The translations under genes and the position numbers were made by a program. From Shigella phage SSP1: DNA of 64,000 nt. Shown here one piece after another: positions 5,638-40,848 of this stretch. Location: sequence record KY963424. One strand, 5' to 3'. A model generated the notes under the pieces. That model worked only from the letters and a program-made list of their open reading frames with translations, did not search any database and had not been told where the DNA came from. Numbering within the stretch: position 1 is the stretch's first letter; every line of letters starts with the position of its first letter.

Positions 5638-6131
5638 TCAGTAAGGAAGAGCTAAGAAGAATGTTCGATTACCAAGAAGATGGTAATCTTATCTGGAAAC
5701 CCAGGGAAGGGGACGAACATTTTAATAAGATATTCGCCGGAACAGTAGCAGGATCTAGACAAAGTACAGGGCATAGAGTAGTTGAACTATATAATGGTTC
5801 CCTAGCTATAGGGGCGCACAGATTAATCTATGCATGGCATACTGGAGAATGGCCTGAAATAGTTGATCACAAGGACAAAGACCCAACTAATGATAGATTT
5901 GAGAATCTAAGACCTGCTACAAGATCTGATAATGCTTGTAACCAAAAAGTAAGAAGCGATAACCATTTAGGCGTTAAAAATATCCATAGAAAAACAAATG
6001 GGACTTACCAAGTAAGAATTACCAAACATGGTAAGCAAGTTTCGAAAACACTTAAGAGTTTGGAAGAGGCTATAAAATGGCGGGATACCAAACTCAAAGA
6101 ACTCCACGGTGAGTTTGCGAGTACAGGCTAA
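5634..6131 (+). CDS. HNH homing endonuclease with AP2-like DNA-binding region
   Basis: AHRLIYAWHTGEWPEIVDHKDKDPTNDRFENLRPATRSDN HNH_3-type motif; paralog of minus-strand ORF 29527-30024. Confidence 0.75.
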   Translation: MISKEELRRMFDYQEDGNLIWKPREGDEHFNKIFAGTVAGSRQSTGHRVVELYNGSLAIGAHRLIYAWHTGEWPEIVDHKDKDPTNDRFENLRPATRSDNACNQKVRSDNHLGVKNIHRKTNGTYQVRITKHGKQVSKTLKSLEEAIKWRDTKLKELHGEFASTG

Positions 6132-6574
6132 TGCGGAAAGGGTTTGTAGACTTAGTTTGGAATAACAAGATGTATATCCTGGGAGCAGGTCTAGCGATAG
6201 GCATCGGGTTCGGCACTTATCACTTAGTAGATAAAGTGGAGACTTTAGCGGGAGATCTTGCGGTAGCTACTAAAAAGATTTCTTCTCTAGAGATTTCCCT
6301 TAATAAGGTGAAAGCTGAAAGCGAACTTCGTGAGACTAGAATGAATCAGTATTTCACGATGAATAATATTTCTCAAGCAGACTTAGATAAGAAAATTGGT
6401 CAGCTTGATAAAGCACTTAACCGCCAAGATATTATAGCCGCAAAGCCTGGATTGGTAACATTAATTGCTAAAAAGCAGAGTAAGGAGTTCGAGGAAAGAT
6501 TAGCATGTTTAACTGGAAACTTGGAATACTGCTCGCAGCCGCAATCACAATCACAGGCTGTGCACAAGAAATAG
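6131..6574 (+). CDS. candidate i-spanin (inner-membrane spanin)
   Basis: N-terminal TM segment then coiled-coil-like periplasmic domain; 3-prime end overlaps a lipoprotein gene. Confidence 0.45.
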   Translation: MRKGFVDLVWNNKMYILGAGLAIGIGFGTYHLVDKVETLAGDLAVATKKISSLEISLNKVKAESELRETRMNQYFTMNNISQADLDKKIGQLDKALNRQDIIAAKPGLVTLIAKKQSKEFEERLACLTGNLEYCSQPQSQSQAVHKK

Positions 6575-8375: not shown

Positions 8376-9032
8376 TTGGAAAAGTTCTTACAATTATTAA
8401 CGGTACTGCTCCAAGAAGCGAAAGATCCAGCATCGCTTCTTAAACGTCTGCTAACTATCTTAGTTGCTGTCATTATTTTCTTATTTGTTAGTAATACTAG
8501 TGAGGTGATGTCATTCTTAAAGACTTTCTCCACGTCTGCGGTTCTACAGGATGTTCAAACTCAAAGGATAAGTAATTTTCCTAACGTAGCTAGAGAAAAG
8601 AGCATGGTGCTTTTTTCCCAAACGGGTGCGGATGCTGTTTTTGTCGTAAAGTATAAACCCGATGCCGTTAATGATTATTCTAACATTATTGCATGGGAAA
8701 GCAATGCGCAATTAGATAGGACTGACTTGGCCGATAAAGCGGTAAATAAAACGTCTGAGCTATATAGACGACACTTAGACGGCTTTAACTACGCATCGGA
8801 CTTAAGTGTAAAAGTAAATAAATACATGGGGTTAAATATACCTGCGTTTAAGAATGTTACTTTTAATTACATATACACTTGTCCGTATTTCAATCTAAAC
8901 AATATCTATGCTGGATATATTGGTATTGCTTGGAAAGATAATCCTGTAGATGCAGCCGATTCTGAGAAATTTAACGAGTACTTAACAAAGCTCTGTTCCC
9001 CACAACAGAGATCTTTAGGTAGATCAATATGA
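8376..9032 (+). CDS. hol: holin (T5-type)
   Basis: 218 aa, N-terminal TM LLKRLLTILVAVIIFLFV, immediately upstream of and coupled to endolysin; TTG start. Confidence 0.7.
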   Translation: MEKFLQLLTVLLQEAKDPASLLKRLLTILVAVIIFLFVSNTSEVMSFLKTFSTSAVLQDVQTQRISNFPNVAREKSMVLFSQTGADAVFVVKYKPDAVNDYSNIIAWESNAQLDRTDLADKAVNKTSELYRRHLDGFNYASDLSVKVNKYMGLNIPAFKNVTFNYIYTCPYFNLNNIYAGYIGIAWKDNPVDAADSEKFNEYLTKLCSPQQRSLGRSI

Positions 9033-9442
9033 GTTTTAAATTTAGTCAAAGAAGTTTAGATAGATTAAAAGGTGTTCATCCAGACTTAGTAAGAGTAACT
9101 CATAGGGCTTTAGAATTAAGCCCGTATGATTTTACGATTACAGAAGGACTTCGTTCTCTAGAGCAAAGTGCTAAGAATATTGCTAATGGAACCTCGTTTT
9201 TAAAAGACCCAAGCAAATCCAAGCATGTTCAAGGTAGGGCGGTAGATTTTGCTCCACTTAAGGATGGAAAGATTGACTGGAATGACCTAGAATCCTTCAA
9301 GTTAGTGGCAGATGCCTTCTTCAAAGCAGCCGAAGAGCTAGGAGTAAAGATTAGATGGGGTGGTGATTGGAACCAAAATGGAAGTTATAAGGATGAAATC
9401 CAACGAGGTACTTTTGACGGACCACACATAGAACTAGTTTAA
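9029..9442 (+). CDS. lys: endolysin, L-alanyl-D-glutamate peptidase (M15 family)
   Basis: 137 aa; ALELSPYDFTITEGLRS..NIANGTSFLKDPSKSKH..DF..DWND matches recalled T5 endolysin. Confidence 0.85.
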   Translation: MSFKFSQRSLDRLKGVHPDLVRVTHRALELSPYDFTITEGLRSLEQSAKNIANGTSFLKDPSKSKHVQGRAVDFAPLKDGKIDWNDLESFKLVADAFFKAAEELGVKIRWGGDWNQNGSYKDEIQRGTFDGPHIELV

Positions 9443-15056: not shown

Positions 15057-15514
15057 CAGCACTACAACAACTACAGAATTACTGGTTTGATAACCAATTT
15101 AACGATCTCTTCATCCAGTTGTTTGTCGAAACGAACGGACGCTTCAACTACCGATTCTTTAATAAGTTTCACGAAACAAAATTCTCGCATACAGAAATTA
15201 ATGCAGCGATCCAAGACCTAACTGGTTCTAAAGTAGTTCAATATCGTGAAGTAGACTTTACACCAGATTGTTTTGGGTTTGAATTGTTTAAGAAAGCATA
15301 TAAATTTGGTAAGTTTGAGGATGCTCGTCAATGGGTTCATGATTTCTGGTACAACACTGATATTGTTCCTAGTCGTGTGCTGATTCTTAACTGGATTGCT
15401 AAGCAACATCCACCTAAAGCTCAATCGTCCTTCTTACCAACTGACACAGGAAACCTCTACCATGACAGAAAAGAAAAATCCATTGCTGGAGCAGATGAAG
15501 GAATGGGAGAGTAA
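15053..15514 (+). CDS. hypothetical protein
   Basis: 153-aa ORF overlapping previous stop. Confidence 0.5.
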   Translation: MTALQQLQNYWFDNQFNDLFIQLFVETNGRFNYRFFNKFHETKFSHTEINAAIQDLTGSKVVQYREVDFTPDCFGFELFKKAYKFGKFEDARQWVHDFWYNTDIVPSRVLILNWIAKQHPPKAQSSFLPTDTGNLYHDRKEKSIAGADEGMGE

Positions 15515-19333: not shown

Positions 19334-19366
19334 ACATTTTTTGAAAACACATTTTCAGAAATTATT

Positions 19367-19972
19367 GTCGGATTTGCACACTGACATAAGTTTAAAAACT
19401 GGTCGGATTTGCACAATTGCCTAAGTTTTTAGGAACATATAATCTCCTGAAAATGCCAGCATTATTTCGGGCCGAAGGCCCATGGTTGCCTGAGTTTTTA
19501 GAGCCACAGAAATTTTCACTTGTCAAGCTATTTTGCCCCATTTAGCAAATAAAATTTTACTTTATCTCCACTAATCTCAAATTAACCCAAATCTTCTCAA
19601 CTCTTCCCCAAAATCCCCACAAATCAGGTGCTCCGCACCAAACATGCGCCCCTCTAGCTTCCCCCCCCCCCCTAATTTTCTCTCGCTCTCTCAACTTCTC
19701 CCCAAACCCACACAATCACACACCCTCTCATCGAAGTCACAAAAATATTCCTGAAACCATAAATCTGTCTCCTAGTAAACTCGTGTCGGATTTGCACATA
19801 CCCCACAGGATTCGAACGCAGTTCGAGATTGCTGGAGTTTTTGGGAAAATTCATTGTCGGATTTGCACACTATAAAAATTTTTCGGGTCGGATTTGCACA
19901 CTACCAAAAATTGTCGGATTCGCACATACACGCCCGCACGTAACACCCGTGGAGCAATGTCGGTTTTGCACA
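19367..19972 (+). repeat. dispersed array of seven copies of 14-mer GTCGGATTTGCACA
   Basis: Exact copies at 19367, 19402, 19785, 19856, 19887; one-mismatch copies at 19913 and 19959; same orientation. Confidence 0.85.
19661..19672 (+). repeat. C12 homopolymer within a G-depleted C/A/T-rich tract
   Basis: Twelve consecutive C; surrounding 19560-19780 has about 6 percent G on + strand. Confidence 0.85.
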
Positions 19973-20002
19973 AAAGCGCAGGGCAATTGCCCTGCGCTAA
20001 AT

Positions 20003-20160
20003 ACGAATGATAATAAGAATCATTCTCATTTAAAAAGCGGAATGAGAATGATAATAATTCGCATTTAGAAAGTGAAATGAGAATCAATCTCATTTAAAAA
20101 GTGGAATGATTCTCATTTAGATAGTGGAATGCAAATGATAATGATTCGCATTTAAGAACG
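20003..20160 (+). repeat. tandem array of degenerate AT-rich palindromic repeats (AATGAGAAT...ATTCTCATT / TGATAAT cores)
   Basis: About five tandem units each ending CATTTA(R)AAAG; extra copy at 20491-20512; resembles Fur-box-like GATAAT arrays. Confidence 0.6.
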
Positions 20161-20161
20161 G

Positions 20162-20295
20162 AAGTGAGAAACACTGTTATTTAAGTTATCCACAGACTTA
20201 TCAACAGCACGATTTGACTTGACAAAACCCTAGCCATTTTGAAGCGTTATTAACAGACTTATCCACAGCTTATCCTACTGTATAAATATACAGTA
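20162..20295 (+). repeat. left arm of about 135-bp imperfect inverted repeat carrying DnaA boxes
   Basis: Reverse complement of 23553-23686 aligns with few mismatches; TTATCCACA at 20186-20194 and 20259-20267, TTATCAACA at 20198-20206. Confidence 0.8.
20276..20295. promoter_or_regulatory. LexA (SOS) box-like palindrome TACTGTATAAATATACAGTA
   Basis: 19 of 20 matches to E. coli LexA consensus TACTGTATATATATACAGTA. Confidence 0.55.
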
Positions 20296-20550
20296 TTCCT
20301 ACGCAGTGAATAATTCTAATATAGCGTTAAAACGCTCTCAAACGCATTCTAACGCGTTTAATTTTGGTGGGGATACTAAATCAAGGGCAAAATTGAAGGA
20401 GGCTTGAAAATTAGTTAGCGCGCTAACGATCACACAAGGCGACACGTAACACCCGAATCATTAGCAGGCTAACCATCGCGGGCGCGGTCAAATGAGAATG
20501 ATTATCATTTGAAAATTGGGGCACTTCCAGATAGTTGCGCCCCGTGATTA

Positions 20551-20745
20551 TTAGTCTGGTAGTCGATGCGTGATCTTTTCCTCCTCCCCATATGAGTCCA
20601 CCAAATACTTATAATAACCATCGTGATCATAAATCACTTTATCATATTCGCCACGCTCAACCGCTTGTCGGTTTTCCGGCGTATCGGGCACGTAAAAAAC
20701 ATCAACCATTGTACTAGTTTTGGTTACAACAATTTTATTGCTCAT
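20551..20745 (-). CDS. hypothetical protein (cassette gene 8)
   Basis: 64-aa ORF, GC-richer composition, last gene of minus-strand cassette. Confidence 0.45.
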   Translation of the reverse strand: MSNKIVVTKTSTMVDVFYVPDTPENRQAVERGEYDKVIYDHDGYYKYLVDSYGEEEKITHRLPD

Positions 20746-20855
20746 AATAACTCCCTAGTAAATATATTTTTGCCAATAGTGGCGAACGTTATCGCCCCCA
20801 GCGGAATCATTAGCGGCCTTACTATTACCAACGAAAGTATATAATCTCATTAGTA

Positions 20856-21017
20856 TTATTTTCCTTGCATTAATTTATATATAACGAACATTCCGCAAAA
20901 CTGCCCTAATATAGTGCAGACAACAAGGGATAACACAATATTGCCGATTGTGTTATAAATAACCATACCAACAATAAGGGATAACGCATATCCTAGCAAA
21001 GCAATATAAACAGCCAT
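20856..21017 (-). CDS. small two-TM membrane protein (cassette)
   Basis: ATG one nt after upstream stop; hydrophobic MAVYIALLGYALSLIVGMVIY and LSLVVCTILGQFCGMFVIY. Confidence 0.45.
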   Translation of the reverse strand: MAVYIALLGYALSLIVGMVIYNTIGNIVLSLVVCTILGQFCGMFVIYKLMQGK

Positions 21018-21018
21018 A

Positions 21019-21363
21019 TTATTTACCCATTTTTCGAAACGCTGTTTCAATACTATCAGCCGTGGATTGAATATATGCTCCTTTCATTATCAGGCGCTCG
21101 GTGCACACCTTACGGAAAATATTAATAAAATCATCCTCATTTTCTGCAATTAATGCTTCACCCATAACCTGAACGTCGCAAGCTGCAAAGGTTAAAAATT
21201 GAAACGCTAGTTCACGGGCAACGACCGCATTGATTTTATAATGCGCCTTACCCTCATAAATATTAATAACGCCCTTATATGCTGGCGAAAGCTGGTTTAA
21301 ATAGCTTGCTAATAATGCCGGGCGGCAGTTAGCAACAAAACGATTTCCCTCATAAATAACCAT
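21019..21363 (-). CDS. hypothetical protein (cassette)
   Basis: 114-aa ORF with GGGAGG RBS supplied by upstream small ORF. Confidence 0.55.
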   Translation of the reverse strand: MVIYEGNRFVANCRPALLASYLNQLSPAYKGVINIYEGKAHYKINAVVARELAFQFLTFAACDVQVMGEALIAENEDDFINIFRKVCTERLIMKGAYIQSTADSIETAFRKMGK

Positions 21364-21364
21364 T

Positions 21365-21490
21365 TTATAACCTCCCGATCAGATAGCCCGATAATAACAT
21401 AAAGATCCCCAGCGAAAGAGGATCATTCTTAAATAAGGTGGCGATAAAACCGCCAGCCATTGCAAGGGCAATAACAATAACGCTTTTCAT
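21365..21490 (-). CDS. small hydrophobic peptide (41 aa, cassette)
   Basis: ATGA overlap with upstream stop; sequence MKSVIVIALAMAGGFIATLF...; below track cutoff. Confidence 0.4.
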   Translation of the reverse strand: MKSVIVIALAMAGGFIATLFKNDPLSLGIFMLLSGYLIGRL

Positions 21491-21699
21491 AGTACCCCAC
21501 GAAACGCAGCGTAAAAGGTGGCAAAGTGCCTAACCGTTTCAAGGATCACGTTGCCGCGCTTGTCGAATTTCTTTTCAGTAACACGAAAAGCGTTTTTGTT
21601 ACGTGCTACATATTCGATTTTACAATCTGGACGCTCGAATGTGTTAGCATCCACCAGCTTAAAACCTTTCGAACGTGCAAGAGAAACGTTACGAATCAT
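21487..21699 (-). CDS. hypothetical protein (cassette)
   Basis: 70-aa ORF translationally coupled to neighbours. Confidence 0.5.
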   Translation of the reverse strand: MIRNVSLARSKGFKLVDANTFERPDCKIEYVARNKNAFRVTEKKFDKRGNVILETVRHFATFYAAFRGVL

Positions 21700-21701
21700 T
21701 T

Positions 21702-21881
21702 TTATTCTCCTTTACTATTCATGCAGCCCAGCAGATAAGAAAATGCAGCGATACCCGCGCCAATAATAACCATTGGTTTTGTGACTACTAAACCGCAATA
21801 ATCTTGAATGCCGTAAGCGGTGGCGAAAAGGGTCAAAATAGCGCCCAAGATACCCGCCAGAATAGCTCGAAAAATAACCAT
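21702..21881 (-). CDS. small two-TM membrane peptide (59 aa, cassette)
   Basis: GGGGAG RBS; MVIFRAILAGILGAILTLFATAYG...MVIIGAGIAAFSYLLG; below track cutoff. Confidence 0.45.
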   Translation of the reverse strand: MVIFRAILAGILGAILTLFATAYGIQDYCGLVVTKPMVIIGAGIAAFSYLLGCMNSKGE

Positions 21882-21931
21882 TTTTTAATACTCCCCTAGT
21901 TAGTGGGGCGAAAGTAACGCCCCGTTATTAA

Positions 21932-22162
21932 TTACATTAAGATAATTTTTGCAGCTTGTTTTTTGGTGCAATGTTCCGCCTTCAGGGTATCCAGCAAAAA
22001 GCCCGCTGTTTGTTGATCGATTTGATCATTATCATAAAGCGTCTGGATGGTGTTATAAGTTTTAGCAATGCCGTATTCTTGGACCATTTCTTGAATAATC
22101 CAGCGATTTGATACCCAGCCTTTACCAGTGAAAAGAGCGTCAGAAGAAGAAAAAGCAACCAT
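21932..22162 (-). CDS. hypothetical protein (cassette)
   Basis: 76-aa ORF on cassette strand. Confidence 0.5.
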   Translation of the reverse strand: MVAFSSSDALFTGKGWVSNRWIIQEMVQEYGIAKTYNTIQTLYDNDQIDQQTAGFLLDTLKAEHCTKKQAAKIILM

Positions 22163-22277
22163 TTTAAGCCTCCAAATTTTTGGGAAAATTTTCGACCGTC
22201 CTCAAACGGTGTAAAGGCATTATAACAAAAAAGGCCACCATAAAAGGCGACCTTTACAAAACTTTACAATAGGCTAG

Positions 22278-23267
22278 TTATTGCTCGTTTTCGGTGTTAT
22301 TGGTAAAAGTAGAAATATCGATACCTTTTACCATTTCATCGATCATCTCAGCGATGTTAAAACTTTGGACCATTTCCAACATTGCCGCTTCCATAGCCGC
22401 CCCCGCTACCGCTTTCGCTTTCTGGTTACTCGGGGCGTACTGGTCAACCGCTACACTCAGCAGGTTAGCGATCACTACACGACCAACCGGCGTATCAATA
22501 TAGCCTTTGATCATGAACGGTGCTTTTTTAGCCGCTACTTTCGTGATTTGAGTTAGTGCAATTTTACCCGCTTCCAGTTTTGCAGCGTTTACAACGGCAG
22601 ACTTATTGGCGGCAACGATGTTAGCAATCTTGGTCATAGTGTTTTTTCCTTTATTTTCAGTAGTTTGAGTGTGAACGCTTTTAGTGTTAGAATTTACAGC
22701 ATGTTTTTCTATATTGCCAATACTTTCTTCCCTTTCGAAAGAAAATCCGGCGTCAACAATATCGCCGTCATATACCCGATTATATAACTCCGACGGTAGC
22801 AAAAAATTACCGTTATCATCAAAGGCCATTATAGCCGCAAAACGATACCCATCAGAATCCGACCGATTCCAGCCAACTGATAAATAACGCCAAAATGAAT
22901 CAAGAAAATTTTCTACGTCATAAAGATCATTATCATTGGCCTCATAGTTTTCTATTGAAAAAACTTCTAAGCCCGCCCCAGTATCATAGGCTTTTACTGT
23001 GTTGCCTTTTACGATTATGAAATCAGTATCCGGCCCCCGACTAGTGAGTAATTGATAATCCTGATTATACAAAACAAGCGTTGCCCCTTGCTTATATAAC
23101 GGTAGAAAACTATTCATATTATAAGCATCATAAGCATCAAAAAAGTTTTGATGAATAGTTTCAATATTGAAAACAAAATGTTTAATGCTGGTGGTCCTGC
23201 TACCATCCAGCAGGTTACGCAGCGCACCTTTTAAGACGGTTGCGTTATCTGGTTTATATAGCCTCAT
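22278..23267 (-). CDS. hypothetical 329-aa protein (first and largest cassette gene)
   Basis: Long ORF with RBS GAGGAGG; N-terminal Asp/Tyr-rich domain and Ala/Lys-rich helical C-terminal half; no motif I recognise. Confidence 0.6.
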   Translation of the reverse strand: MRLYKPDNATVLKGALRNLLDGSRTTSIKHFVFNIETIHQNFFDAYDAYNMNSFLPLYKQGATLVLYNQDYQLLTSRGPDTDFIIVKGNTVKAYDTGAGLEVFSIENYEANDNDLYDVENFLDSFWRYLSVGWNRSDSDGYRFAAIMAFDDNGNFLLPSELYNRVYDGDIVDAGFSFEREESIGNIEKHAVNSNTKSVHTQTTENKGKNTMTKIANIVAANKSAVVNAAKLEAGKIALTQITKVAAKKAPFMIKGYIDTPVGRVVIANLLSVAVDQYAPSNQKAKAVAGAAMEAAMLEMVQSFNIAEMIDEMVKGIDISTFTNNTENEQ

Positions 23268-23552
23268 TTGTTGGCCTCCTCGTTAATCGGTGAGTGAATG
23301 ATAAGGGTAATTTTCTAGTATAGGCAAAGATTATTTTACTTTTTTATTTTCCTTGCCTAGTGCCTAATTTTATGCTAACCGCGCAGCGGTGTAATAAAGA
23401 GCAAAACACGGCGAAGCCACCAGGGCGCCGCATTGCCGCCACCTGGCCAACGTGTTGGGCCTTTACTTTAATATTACCCCGCAGCGTTTAGCTCGTTAGA
23501 AAGCGTTTTAGGCGGCCTAAAATTGATTGCAGTCGTTAACACTGCCTTTCTA

Positions 23553-23572
23553 CCCTGTATATTTATACAGTA
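23553..23572. promoter_or_regulatory. LexA box-like palindrome (CTGTATATTTATACAG core)
   Basis: CTGT-N8-ACAG with AT spacer, 17 of 20 to LexA consensus; inverted copy of the site at 20276-20295. Confidence 0.5.
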
Positions 23573-23686
23573 GGATAACCTGTGGATAACTCTGTGTAAA
23601 AGTCCCCATATCGCCGCCTATTGTGTCAAATTATTTTGTGCTGTGGATAACGTTGTGGATAACTTAAATGATAGTGGTTCTCACTT
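23553..23686 (+). repeat. right arm of inverted repeat carrying DnaA boxes
   Basis: TGTGGATAA at 23581-23589, 23642-23650, 23654-23662; reverse complement matches 20162-20295. Confidence 0.8.
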
Positions 23687-23696
23687 ATGCCGATAG

Positions 23697-23765
23697 TTTC
23701 TTATAGTTATTATTATAATGGTGATGATTACATATAGCTATTATTATAGTGGTGATGATTTCATA
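23697..23765 (+). repeat. AT-rich direct repeats (two copies of about 31 bp)
   Basis: AGTTATTATTATAATGGTGATGATTACATAT and AGCTATTATTATAGTGGTGATGATTTCATAT in tandem inside a 350-bp AT-rich non-coding stretch. Confidence 0.75.
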
Positions 23766-24045
23766 TAGTTATTATTTCTCATTAATTTATAAGTATATTA
23801 TATATCATGAAATAGTTAGTTGGCTAATGAGATTTTCCGTGATTAATAGTCTGCTAATAGTTCAGGCCGTTACAATCCACCAGCATGATTATCATCCTAG
23901 CAATTATTAGTCTGCTATCTTTCCGATGCATACTAACAAATAAAAGTCAATTAATTAATTTTATAAAATAAGTCATTTGATCTTGATTTTTAAAAGTCAA
24001 GACCTTTTCCAACTATTTTTCAATTTTGCGTTTGTTAATGATTTG

Positions 24046-24342: not shown

Positions 24343-24684
24343 ATGATTGAACTAACAAAAGATATTGATTTAGAAACCGTACTAGATAACCTTTACTATG
24401 ATGAAACTAGTCCTAGTTGCCTACGGTGGAAAGTATCCCGCCCCGGTTGCGCCCTTCATGGGGTAGCAGGTACTAAACGGAAGGATGGCTATTGGTCTGT
24501 TCAACTAAATAAAGAGCGTTATCTTGCGCATCGTATTGTGTGGTTACTATTTAATTATAAAATAGATAGCAAACTAGTAATTGATCATATTGATCGTAAT
24601 CCTAGTAACAATTTTATTGATAACTTACGGTTAGTAACTCAAGCCGAAAACAACCAAAATAAAGGAGAGTATAGAAAGGCGTAA
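24343..24684 (+). CDS. HNH homing endonuclease
   Basis: LAHRIVWLLF...IDHIDRNPSNNFIDNLRLVTQAENN HNH_3 motif; AT-rich relative to neighbours. Confidence 0.75.
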   Translation: MIELTKDIDLETVLDNLYYDETSPSCLRWKVSRPGCALHGVAGTKRKDGYWSVQLNKERYLAHRIVWLLFNYKIDSKLVIDHIDRNPSNNFIDNLRLVTQAENNQNKGEYRKA

Positions 24685-40362: not shown

Positions 40363-40848
40363 ATGGACCATAGAACAAGTATTGCACAAGCTATGGTTGA
40401 CCGAATCTCTAAACAAATGGATGGTTCTCAACCTGACGAATATTTTAATAACCTATACGGAAACGTTTCTCGTCAAACTTATAAATTTGAGGAAATACGA
40501 GAGTTTCCTTATGTGGCAGTTCATATCGGAACTGAAACTGGGCAGTATCTTCCTTCAGGCCAACAGTGGATGTTTTTAGAACTTCCAATCCTGGTGTACG
40601 ATAAAGAGAAAACAGACATTCAAGAGCAACTTGAAAAACTCGTAGCGGATATAAAAACCGTTATTGACACAGGTGGAAATTTAGAATATACTGTTAGTAA
40701 ACCTAATGGATCGACCTTCCCATGTGAGGCAACTGATATGATCATTACATCAGTTAGTACAGATGAGGGTCTACTGGCCCCATATGGTTTAGCAGAAATA
40801 AATGTAACAGTGAGGTATCAGCCTCCACGTAGGTCACTTCGCAGATAA
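40363..40848 (+). CDS. tail terminator protein (putative)
   Basis: 161-aa ORF directly upstream of tail tube gene. Confidence 0.5.
   Translation: MDHRTSIAQAMVDRISKQMDGSQPDEYFNNLYGNVSRQTYKFEEIREFPYVAVHIGTETGQYLPSGQQWMFLELPILVYDKEKTDIQEQLEKLVADIKTVIDTGGNLEYTVSKPNGSTFPCEATDMIITSVSTDEGLLAPYGLAEINVTVRYQPPRRSLRR

Follow-up and report, generated by a model that had tools for sequence, protein, structure and literature searches.

Two 20-bp palindromes in Shigella phage SSP1 (KY963424; the 64,000-nucleotide stretch analysed here is called the window) have the form of LexA boxes, and each of them sits next to DnaA boxes in one arm of a large inverted repeat in the first-step-transfer (FST) DNA. Judging by sequence, we hold with about even confidence that these would be genuine sites for the LexA protein of the host, kept by selection as one component of a LexA/DnaA module in the arms, and that they are not classical operators. 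We base this reading on what was observed: sites of high quality that are conserved and stand at a fixed distance from DnaA boxes, with no conserved promoter context. A first-pass annotation of the same DNA had described a near-consensus LexA (SOS) operator in each arm, which might tie the bracketed gene cassette, or DNA entry, to the SOS state of the host. As a description of sites that are LexA-grade, embedded in the arms, adjacent to DnaA boxes and conserved it holds up well; an operator, a need for SOS induction and a link to the cassette are not supported by the analysis below. Positions 19900-24000 of the window are 100% identical to Salmonella phage SPC35, in reverse orientation to the SPC35 record. 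SPC35 is a T5-like Tequintavirus of the virulent family Demerecviridae, and the matching region is its left terminal repeat, which contains the FST DNA. The elements of the two arms are:

20162-20308: inverted-repeat arm 1, equivalent to T5 IRD'-spacer-IRC'; non-coding injection-stop region, ~0.8 kb inside the terminal-repeat end
20186-20206, plus strand: distal DnaA-box pair of arm 1, TTATCCACA, gac, TTATCAACA; starts 61 bp before the proximal pair
20247-20267, plus strand: DnaA-box pair next to box 1, TTATTAACA, gac, TTATCCACA; ends 8 nt before the LexA-type box
20276-20295: LexA-type box 1, injection-stop-proximal, TACTGTATAAATATACAGTA; inner end of arm 1, equivalent to T5 'palindrome D'
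23540-23686: inverted-repeat arm 2, equivalent to T5 IRC-spacer-IRD; between divergent pre-early operons
23553-23572: LexA-type box 2, A2-proximal, CCCTGTATATTTATACAGTA, reverse complement TACTGTATAAATATACAGGG; inner end of arm 2 (T5 IRD)
23581-23601, minus strand: DnaA-box pair next to box 2, TGTGGATAA, ctc, TGTGTAAAA; starts 8 nt after the LexA-type box
23642-23662, minus strand: distal DnaA-box pair of arm 2, TGTGGATAA, cgt, TGTGGATAA; assigned by sequence and repeat family

Both sites show the features of a gammaproteobacterial LexA box, namely a palindrome of 20 bp built around a CTGT-N8-ACAG core whose spacer is AT-rich. Box 1 matches the LexA consensus TACTGTATATATATACAGTA at 19 of 20 positions, exactly where it had been annotated, and the mirrored box 2, likewise found where it had been placed, keeps the core and matches at 17 of 20. 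For scoring, 17 boxes that count as experimentally established LexA operators of K-12 were used. The exact sequence of each was confirmed in the Escherichia coli K-12 MG1655 genome (NC_000913.3), upstream of the SOS gene to which it belongs, and a symmetrised position weight matrix and a heterology index (HI) were derived from them. The 17 verified operators range from 16.7 to 27.8 bits on this matrix. Box 1, at 29.7 bits (HI 0.55-0.77), tops all of them, the best being umuDC at 27.8 bits, and box 2, at 24.9 bits (HI 3.7-4.0), is about level with recA (24.6 bits). Both scores are thus within or above the range of established operators, and the low score on exact calculation that the annotation had named as speaking against its claim did not materialise.

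Sites of this quality are not expected by chance. Per position, the exact probability of reaching 29.7 bits is 2.5e-11 and that of reaching 24.9 bits is 1e-8, corresponding to 1.6e-6 and 6.7e-4 expected sites in 64 kb; on these probabilities, and on shuffles, which agree with them, a chance origin of the boxes was rejected. CTGT-N8-ACAG occurs only three times in the 64 kb, in the two boxes and at position 8993, where the score of -14 bits marks a chance match of no relevance. The third-ranked 20-mer of the window reaches 14.4 bits. This weakly LexA-like sequence, TACTGGTTTGATAACCAATT at 15080-15099, lies outside the repeat region, and ~0.7 such scores are expected by chance per window; several relatives have it in identical form, ~8.5-9.8 kb upstream of A2.

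The placement of the boxes relative to DnaA sites is equally regular. A consensus DnaA box is found exactly 8 nt from each LexA-type box (TTATCCACA at 20259-20267 and TGTGGATAA at 23581-23589), and both LexA-type boxes occupy the cassette-facing ends of the arms, so that the annotated embedding of the boxes in the two arms, beside DnaA boxes, is borne out. The arms form two inverted-repeat pairs that are 80-84% complementary. They have the characters of the injection-stop inverted repeat of T5: two inverted arms of ~130 bp in the terminal repeat, at the same places as in T5, each carrying four DnaA or DnaA-like boxes as two pairs, with 3 nt between the members of a pair and a constant distance from pair to pair. 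This distance, from start to start, is 61 bp in both arms, as it is for the annotated direct repeat B copies of T5. In T5 itself (AY587007) a 20-mer identical to box 1, and homologous to it, is annotated as 'palindrome D' at 9330-9349, overlapping the inverted repeat IRD', and the counterpart of box 2 is CACTGTATAAATATACAGGG in the inverted repeat IRD, at ~6126-6145. The DnaA boxes paired at 3 nt, the 61-bp repeat of the pairs and the distance of ~3.2 kb between the arms are common to T5 and the window.

The usual layout of the composite is a DnaA box, 3 nt, a second DnaA box, 8 nt and the LexA box. The gap that separates the LexA box from the closest DnaA-type 9-mer measures 8 nt in SPC35, T5, Klebsiella phage Shiner, Pectobacterium phage My1 and L039 (IMG/VR contig 2974548499), and it is 9 nt in a Proteus phage and 7 and 6 nt in the Vibrio phages Chester and D232. 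A search for the composite pattern in 2.9 million viral contigs returned ~25 contigs, nearly all of them T5-sized, and the same search in ~186,000 bacterial and archaeal genomes returned a single match, a mis-binned T5-like fragment. Derivation of the composite from a host regulatory module was discarded, as the pattern was not found in the ~186,000 bacterial genomes other than in this phage contig. The contig itself (RZZU01000077.1) is 3 kb long and filed under a 'Clostridia bacterium' metagenome-assembled genome; it carries both LexA boxes, is 82-91% identical to positions 19906-23891 of the window and is probably a binning contaminant.

A third kind of host-regulator site may be present nearby. 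Six 19-mers within 600 bp, belonging to palindromic repeats of the type AATGAGAATCATTCTCATT, match the Fur consensus GATAATGATAATCATTATC at 14-16 of 19 positions; shuffles yield 0.03 such matches, and the rest of the window has 0.08 per 600 bp. Comparable boxes occur at most 600 bp from the injection-stop-proximal LexA box in T5, My1, the Proteus phage and Shiner, and none was found within this distance in the two Vibrio phages. The Fur-like, DnaA and LexA-type sites thus look like a cluster of sites for host regulators, as far as their sequences indicate. A search of the region for known RNA families gave one sub-threshold chance match only.

Conservation was followed in close relatives. They were collected by their A2 protein, with no use of the motif, which gave 29 distinct T5-like contigs in IMG/VR. 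Both boxes are present in 28 of these, and the remaining contig has too little upstream DNA to judge. In the 28 informative contigs box 1 never falls below 26.1 bits; its natural variants (CTGG, TAC, a leading C) occur in real operators, and its CTG and CAG are untouched in all. Box 2 spans 20.2-29.7 bits, with one CAG changed to CAA in four contigs. Across these 28 relatives the twelve columns of CTGTAT/ATACAG have an entropy of 0.07-0.10 bits, the central four 0.35-0.45 bits and the flanks 0.27-0.62 bits, which is the profile expected of a LexA site. Distant members of the Demerecviridae, reached through A1 by tblastn, also have LexA-grade boxes, with A1 identities of 31-74%:

Klebsiella phage Shiner: A1 identity 73%; boxes of 29.7 and 29.7 bits
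Pectobacterium phage My1: A1 identity 65%; boxes of 28.4 and 26.9 bits
Proteus phage M4H10_20: A1 identity 42%; boxes of 21.9 and 24.9 bits
Vibrio phage D232: A1 identity 34%; boxes of 22.2, 19.3 and 24.9 bits
Vibrio phage Chester: A1 identity 33%; boxes of 27.4 and 19.6 bits

Sites of at least 19 bits are expected by chance at ~0.01 per 15 kb. Over the whole family the majority fraction is 0.89 in the box, 0.60 in the flank on the DnaA side and 0.49 in the far flank. The sites are therefore kept in T5 itself and across the Demerecviridae, and their absence from relatives, which the first-pass annotation had listed as evidence against it, was not observed. Three A1-bearing phages outside the Demerecviridae that have no FST-like region (Rhizobium phage RHph_Y48 and Rhodobacter phage RcRhea, both of Alphaproteobacteria, and a Vibrio phage) contain no site above 12.2 bits. 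A comparison through these phages, looking for a switch of the motif with the host, was abandoned: their A1 genes lie in dense replication modules, and GTTC-N7-GTTC is found in them as isolated matches only. Lacking an FST-like region, they serve as negative controls only.

The claim that the boxes are operators fared less well, since no conserved or annotated promoter overlaps either of them. The annotated T5 promoters P3 and P4 are ~190 bp from box 2, box 1 follows a terminator in DNA that is free of genes, and those pre-early promoters that have been characterised are located elsewhere. The classic strong T5 promoter P_D/E20, in the 29-nt form used here, has an exact match at 40664-40692, ~11 kb beyond the terminal repeat, and P_H207, in the form used here, has no match in the window. 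With P3/P4 ~190 bp away and the P_D/E20 match outside the region, we rejected a role of the boxes as classical operators of known promoters. A 2026 preprint gives the name P_D/E20 to a promoter over the pre-early gene hdi, which is at odds with the match at 40664-40692. A weak, unannotated promoter is still conceivable, and the boxes could then be classical SOS operators over promoters built from the DnaA-box side, such as TTTACA-17-TATCCT starting inside box 2, so that LexA, and DnaA, would repress a transcript that leaves the arm towards the cassette or the flank and that would be turned on in SOS-induced hosts. A consensus scan does provide candidates: TTTACA-17-TATCCT on the minus strand (23600-23572) touches box 2, TTAACA-16-TATATT on the plus strand (23536-23563) has its -10 element inside box 2, TTGAGA-17-TAGAAT on the minus strand (20341-20313) is ~18 nt upstream of box 1, and the boxes themselves contain TATAAA or TATATT. 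It is also true that the characterised uses of LexA by mobile elements, for example in GIL01 and CTX-phi, are all transcriptional. However, promoter-like hexamer matches in the region are not in excess over shuffles (23 versus 17.6 +/- 4.8), and the candidates of one arm are not those of the other, nor are they kept in T5. The far flank of the boxes, away from the DnaA sites, is poorly conserved, and neither the position of box 1 after a terminator nor the distance of P3/P4 from box 2 agrees with such a promoter. In addition, the strand of the cassette relative to A1/A2, traced by its DUF7566 protein, is opposite in Shiner, My1 and L039 to that in SPC35, T5, the relative ESCO40 and the Proteus phage, so that the boxes have no fixed relation to a promoter or terminator of the cassette. 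We consider such cryptic operators unlikely. Nor do the boxes resemble the LexA-controlled switches of temperate phages of the 186 Tum, GIL01 or CTX-phi type: the family is virulent, no promoter overlaps them, and no repressor or antirepressor was found among the annotated and Pfam-scanned products of the cassette and its neighbouring genes.

If the boxes are protein sites away from promoters, the protein could be that of the host or one of the phage. Gammaproteobacteria share the CTGT-N8-ACAG LexA motif, and all hosts of the box-carrying phages belong to this class. The phage proteins have diverged to ~30-70% identity while the site has not changed, which fits a host factor of invariant specificity; the neighbouring DnaA boxes are the sites of another such protein. 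Alternatively, the palindrome may be bound by a phage-encoded dimer, most obviously A2, alone or with A1, and its likeness to a LexA box would then be coincidence, mimicry or competition. A2 is a DNA-binding dimer that is essential for second-step transfer and binds A1, and palindrome D is among the candidate sites for cleavage by A1/A2 (Davison 2020, bioRxiv 10.1101/866236). The protein is conserved throughout the family and encoded 2-6 kb from the boxes, and its predicted structure (pLDDT 84) includes a small helix-turn-helix domain. Yet a coincidental match of 19 of 20 positions to the consensus of another protein, flanking TA included, is very improbable, and Vibrio, Proteus and Klebsiella phages have the motif in the same form in spite of A1 identities of 31-74% and of variation in A2 itself, which goes down to 52% identity among the homologues found. 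The injection stop, moreover, needs no phage protein synthesis. The A2 model gives weak, generic helix-turn-helix matches with Z up to 5.8, all below 6 and none of them LexA; BLASTP of A2 against LexA returns E = 8; and a Pfam scan of 10 FST proteins detected neither a LexA-type nor any other recognisable DNA-binding domain. On these three results a LexA-like protein of the phage was rejected. Sequence and fold comparison thus leave an A2 site without positive evidence, and we think it quite unlikely that the palindrome is one.

Finally, the palindrome could matter as DNA, forming a hairpin or cruciform or serving as the crossover point between the arms in cassette inversion or arm pairing, and not as a protein site. 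It is nearly perfect and stands within an inverted repeat of 130-150 bp; the opposite strands of the cassette among lineages point to an inversion by recombination between the arms during evolution; and the AA and TT forms of the box centre are found on the same flanks, consistent with exchange between arms. Against this, the palindrome arms depart from the consensus in 10 cases, each of them on one side only and without a compensating change, showing that base identity, and not pairing, is kept, and selection for a hairpin was rejected on this count. The same bases are also retained in Vibrio and Proteus phages with unrelated flanks, and an AT-rich hairpin of 16-20 bp would be weak. A purely structural role therefore appears very improbable.

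Returning to host LexA, one may propose the following model. LexA dimers and DnaA that are already present in the cell would load side by side onto each arm on its entry. The nucleoprotein complex so formed would mark and organise the injection-stop region, at the distal end of the first-injected DNA, while a second, dispensable copy of the module would bracket the pre-early cassette. The complex may contribute to pausing or anchoring of the DNA, or may insulate it from transcription and nucleases, and would later be overridden by the phage proteins A1 and A2 and not by RecA-driven cleavage of LexA. Both the binding of LexA and the role of the complex are what we infer from the sites. Pre-existing host factors fit the classical finding that the injection stop is independent of phage protein synthesis, and they fit Davison's model of DnaA boxes in these repeats as well. 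A need for SOS induction is not supported by ESCO40, which has both boxes (29.7 and 24.9 bits) and for which the host in the record is E. coli DH5alpha. This strain is recA1 and cannot cleave LexA. Cleavage is accordingly not needed for growth, which speaks against an injection block released by SOS. The link to the cassette also loses ground, as the arm that carries box 2 is probably deleted in a viable T5 mutant. In DNA entry, which had been suggested as well, the boxes may have a role.

Several points weigh against a functional LexA/DnaA module. The T5 mutant with a deletion from hegG to 017, which is viable and forms small plaques, probably lacks box 2 together with the IRC-IRD arm, provided that its deletion is contiguous; relatives of 'Type 4' lack the IRC-IRD arm (Davison, bioRxiv 10.1101/866236); and the damaged CAG of box 2 concerns 4 of 28 phages. 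Taken together, these cases show that at least one copy is dispensable: box 1 is the universal copy and box 2 the dispensable one. Conservation could equally reflect a conserved phage protein that co-evolves with its site, and the hosts of all family members share one LexA motif. Occupancy of the boxes by LexA is a prediction from their sequence, and there is no convincing physical reason why proteins on DNA that is already inside should stop the DNA that follows. The further step, that LexA beside DnaA, and perhaps Fur on the adjacent repeats, would be part of the host-side component of the T5 injection stop signal, so that transfer would be paused by a complex of global host regulators on a landing pad later dismantled by A1/A2, seems to us a doubtful one, distinctly on the unlikely side.

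The other features of the region are arranged around the two arms as follows:

Up to 18920, plus strand: early genes (window layout)
~19506: end of the terminal repeat, from comparison with SPC35
19366-19975: seven direct repeats with the core TGTCGGATTTGCACA, equivalent to the T5 'direct repeat D' copies
20006-20160: Fur-box-like palindromic repeats, at the position of the T5 DRC repeats and palindromes E-J; directly outside arm 1
20340-20359, plus strand: terminator-like hairpin separating box 1 from the cassette, at the place of palindrome C in T5
20487-20519: further Fur-box-like copy, from repeat analysis
20551-23267, minus strand: pre-early gene cassette, homologues of T5 genes 011-017, among them one for a DUF7566 protein of 329 aa (open reading frames, annotation, Pfam)
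23687-23779: three tandem 31-bp repeats (ATGGTGATGATTACATATAGCTATTATTATA-like), directly outside arm 2
Beyond arm 2, plus strand: pre-early operon with A2, A1 and dmp (window layout)

The cassette at 20551-23267 is bracketed by both arms. The seven TGTCGGATTTGCACA repeats straddle the terminal-repeat end at ~19506. Immediately outside arm 2 are the ATGGTGATGATTACATATAGCTATTATTATA-like tandem repeats, and the corresponding place at arm 1 is taken by the Fur-like repeats. The window contains a single copy of the terminal repeat and a single pair of LexA boxes, as in a circular assembly in which the repeat has collapsed. Outside the terminal repeat it is only ~92% identical to any public phage, and from ~29474 on it continues beyond the left genome end of SPC35 into such DNA of ~92% identity. 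At 24343-24684 there is an open reading frame for a 113-aa HNH endonuclease (Pfam HNH_3) that has no counterpart in the SPC35 record, and the coordinates of window and SPC35 record shift by 396 bp at this point. The Shivani record annotates an HNH endonuclease under the match to this reading frame. An HNH insert in the same region has been described for T5, Shivani and FFH1 (Davison, bioRxiv 10.1101/866236). 

Injection of T5 DNA pauses after ~8% of the genome, and how this happens has been a question since the 1960s. The cis-acting signal has been narrowed to a repeat-rich region, and DnaA is the one host factor that has been put forward until now (bioRxiv 10.1101/866236; PMC10644984). A LexA box that outscores all 17 K-12 operators, stands at a fixed distance from DnaA boxes and is found in phages from those of E. 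coli to those of Vibrio would add a second concrete candidate among host proteins. If LexA is part of the stop signal, a strictly virulent phage family would be using the SOS repressor as a structural or entry-control factor and not as a transcriptional switch. The box would also be, as far as we found, the first family-wide LexA site in strictly virulent phages, and one used outside a promoter. Should LexA not bind, the conservation would still point to strong selection on an element of 20 bp, and the protein that binds it would be worth finding.

The palindrome itself is known. The inverted repeats and eight DnaA boxes in pairs spaced by 3 nt were described as conserved in 25 T5-like phages, together with a model in which membrane-bound DnaA arrests injection at the repeats (Davison, bioRxiv 10.1101/866236). 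That paper contains neither the word LexA nor the word SOS and treats the T5 element only as a palindrome. Experiments on these sites are lacking according to a 2023 paper on phage BF23 (PMC10644984). A full-text literature search, which did not cover the sequence papers of 1987 and 2005 or the Davison review of 2015, found no prior assignment of the element to LexA. The LexA reading, the fixed partnership with DnaA and the conservation out to Vibrio phages appear to be new.

Compared with the SOS boxes of E. coli and Salmonella (umuDC, dinD, sulA, recA), the phage boxes have the same CTGT-N8-ACAG palindrome with an AT-rich centre and score comparably or higher. Chromosomal SOS boxes, however, overlap promoters and are ~100 bp or less from the start codon (Salmonella, PMC8072944), whereas the phage boxes have no conserved promoter. 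They are found in non-coding repeat DNA, paired with DnaA boxes, a composite not encountered in the bacterial chromosomes searched. LexA boxes are also used by temperate phages and other mobile elements, such as GIL01 (with gp7), CTX-phi rstA, coliphage 186 tum, colicin operons and integron integrases. These resemble the present case in that a mobile element with host-type LexA boxes recruits the repressor of the host, although here binding is predicted. In those elements the boxes are promoter operators that tie a switch of lysogeny or expression to DNA damage; in the strictly virulent T5-like phages the site is not a promoter site, and, judging by the recA1 host in the ESCO40 record, the phages apparently do not require SOS induction. 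Closest to our reading is Davison's model for T5, which likewise places pre-existing DNA-binding proteins of the host on the distal part of the first-step DNA. That model invokes DnaA only, with IHF and Fis mentioned in passing, and LexA and Fur-like sites would turn the region into a multi-factor landing pad.

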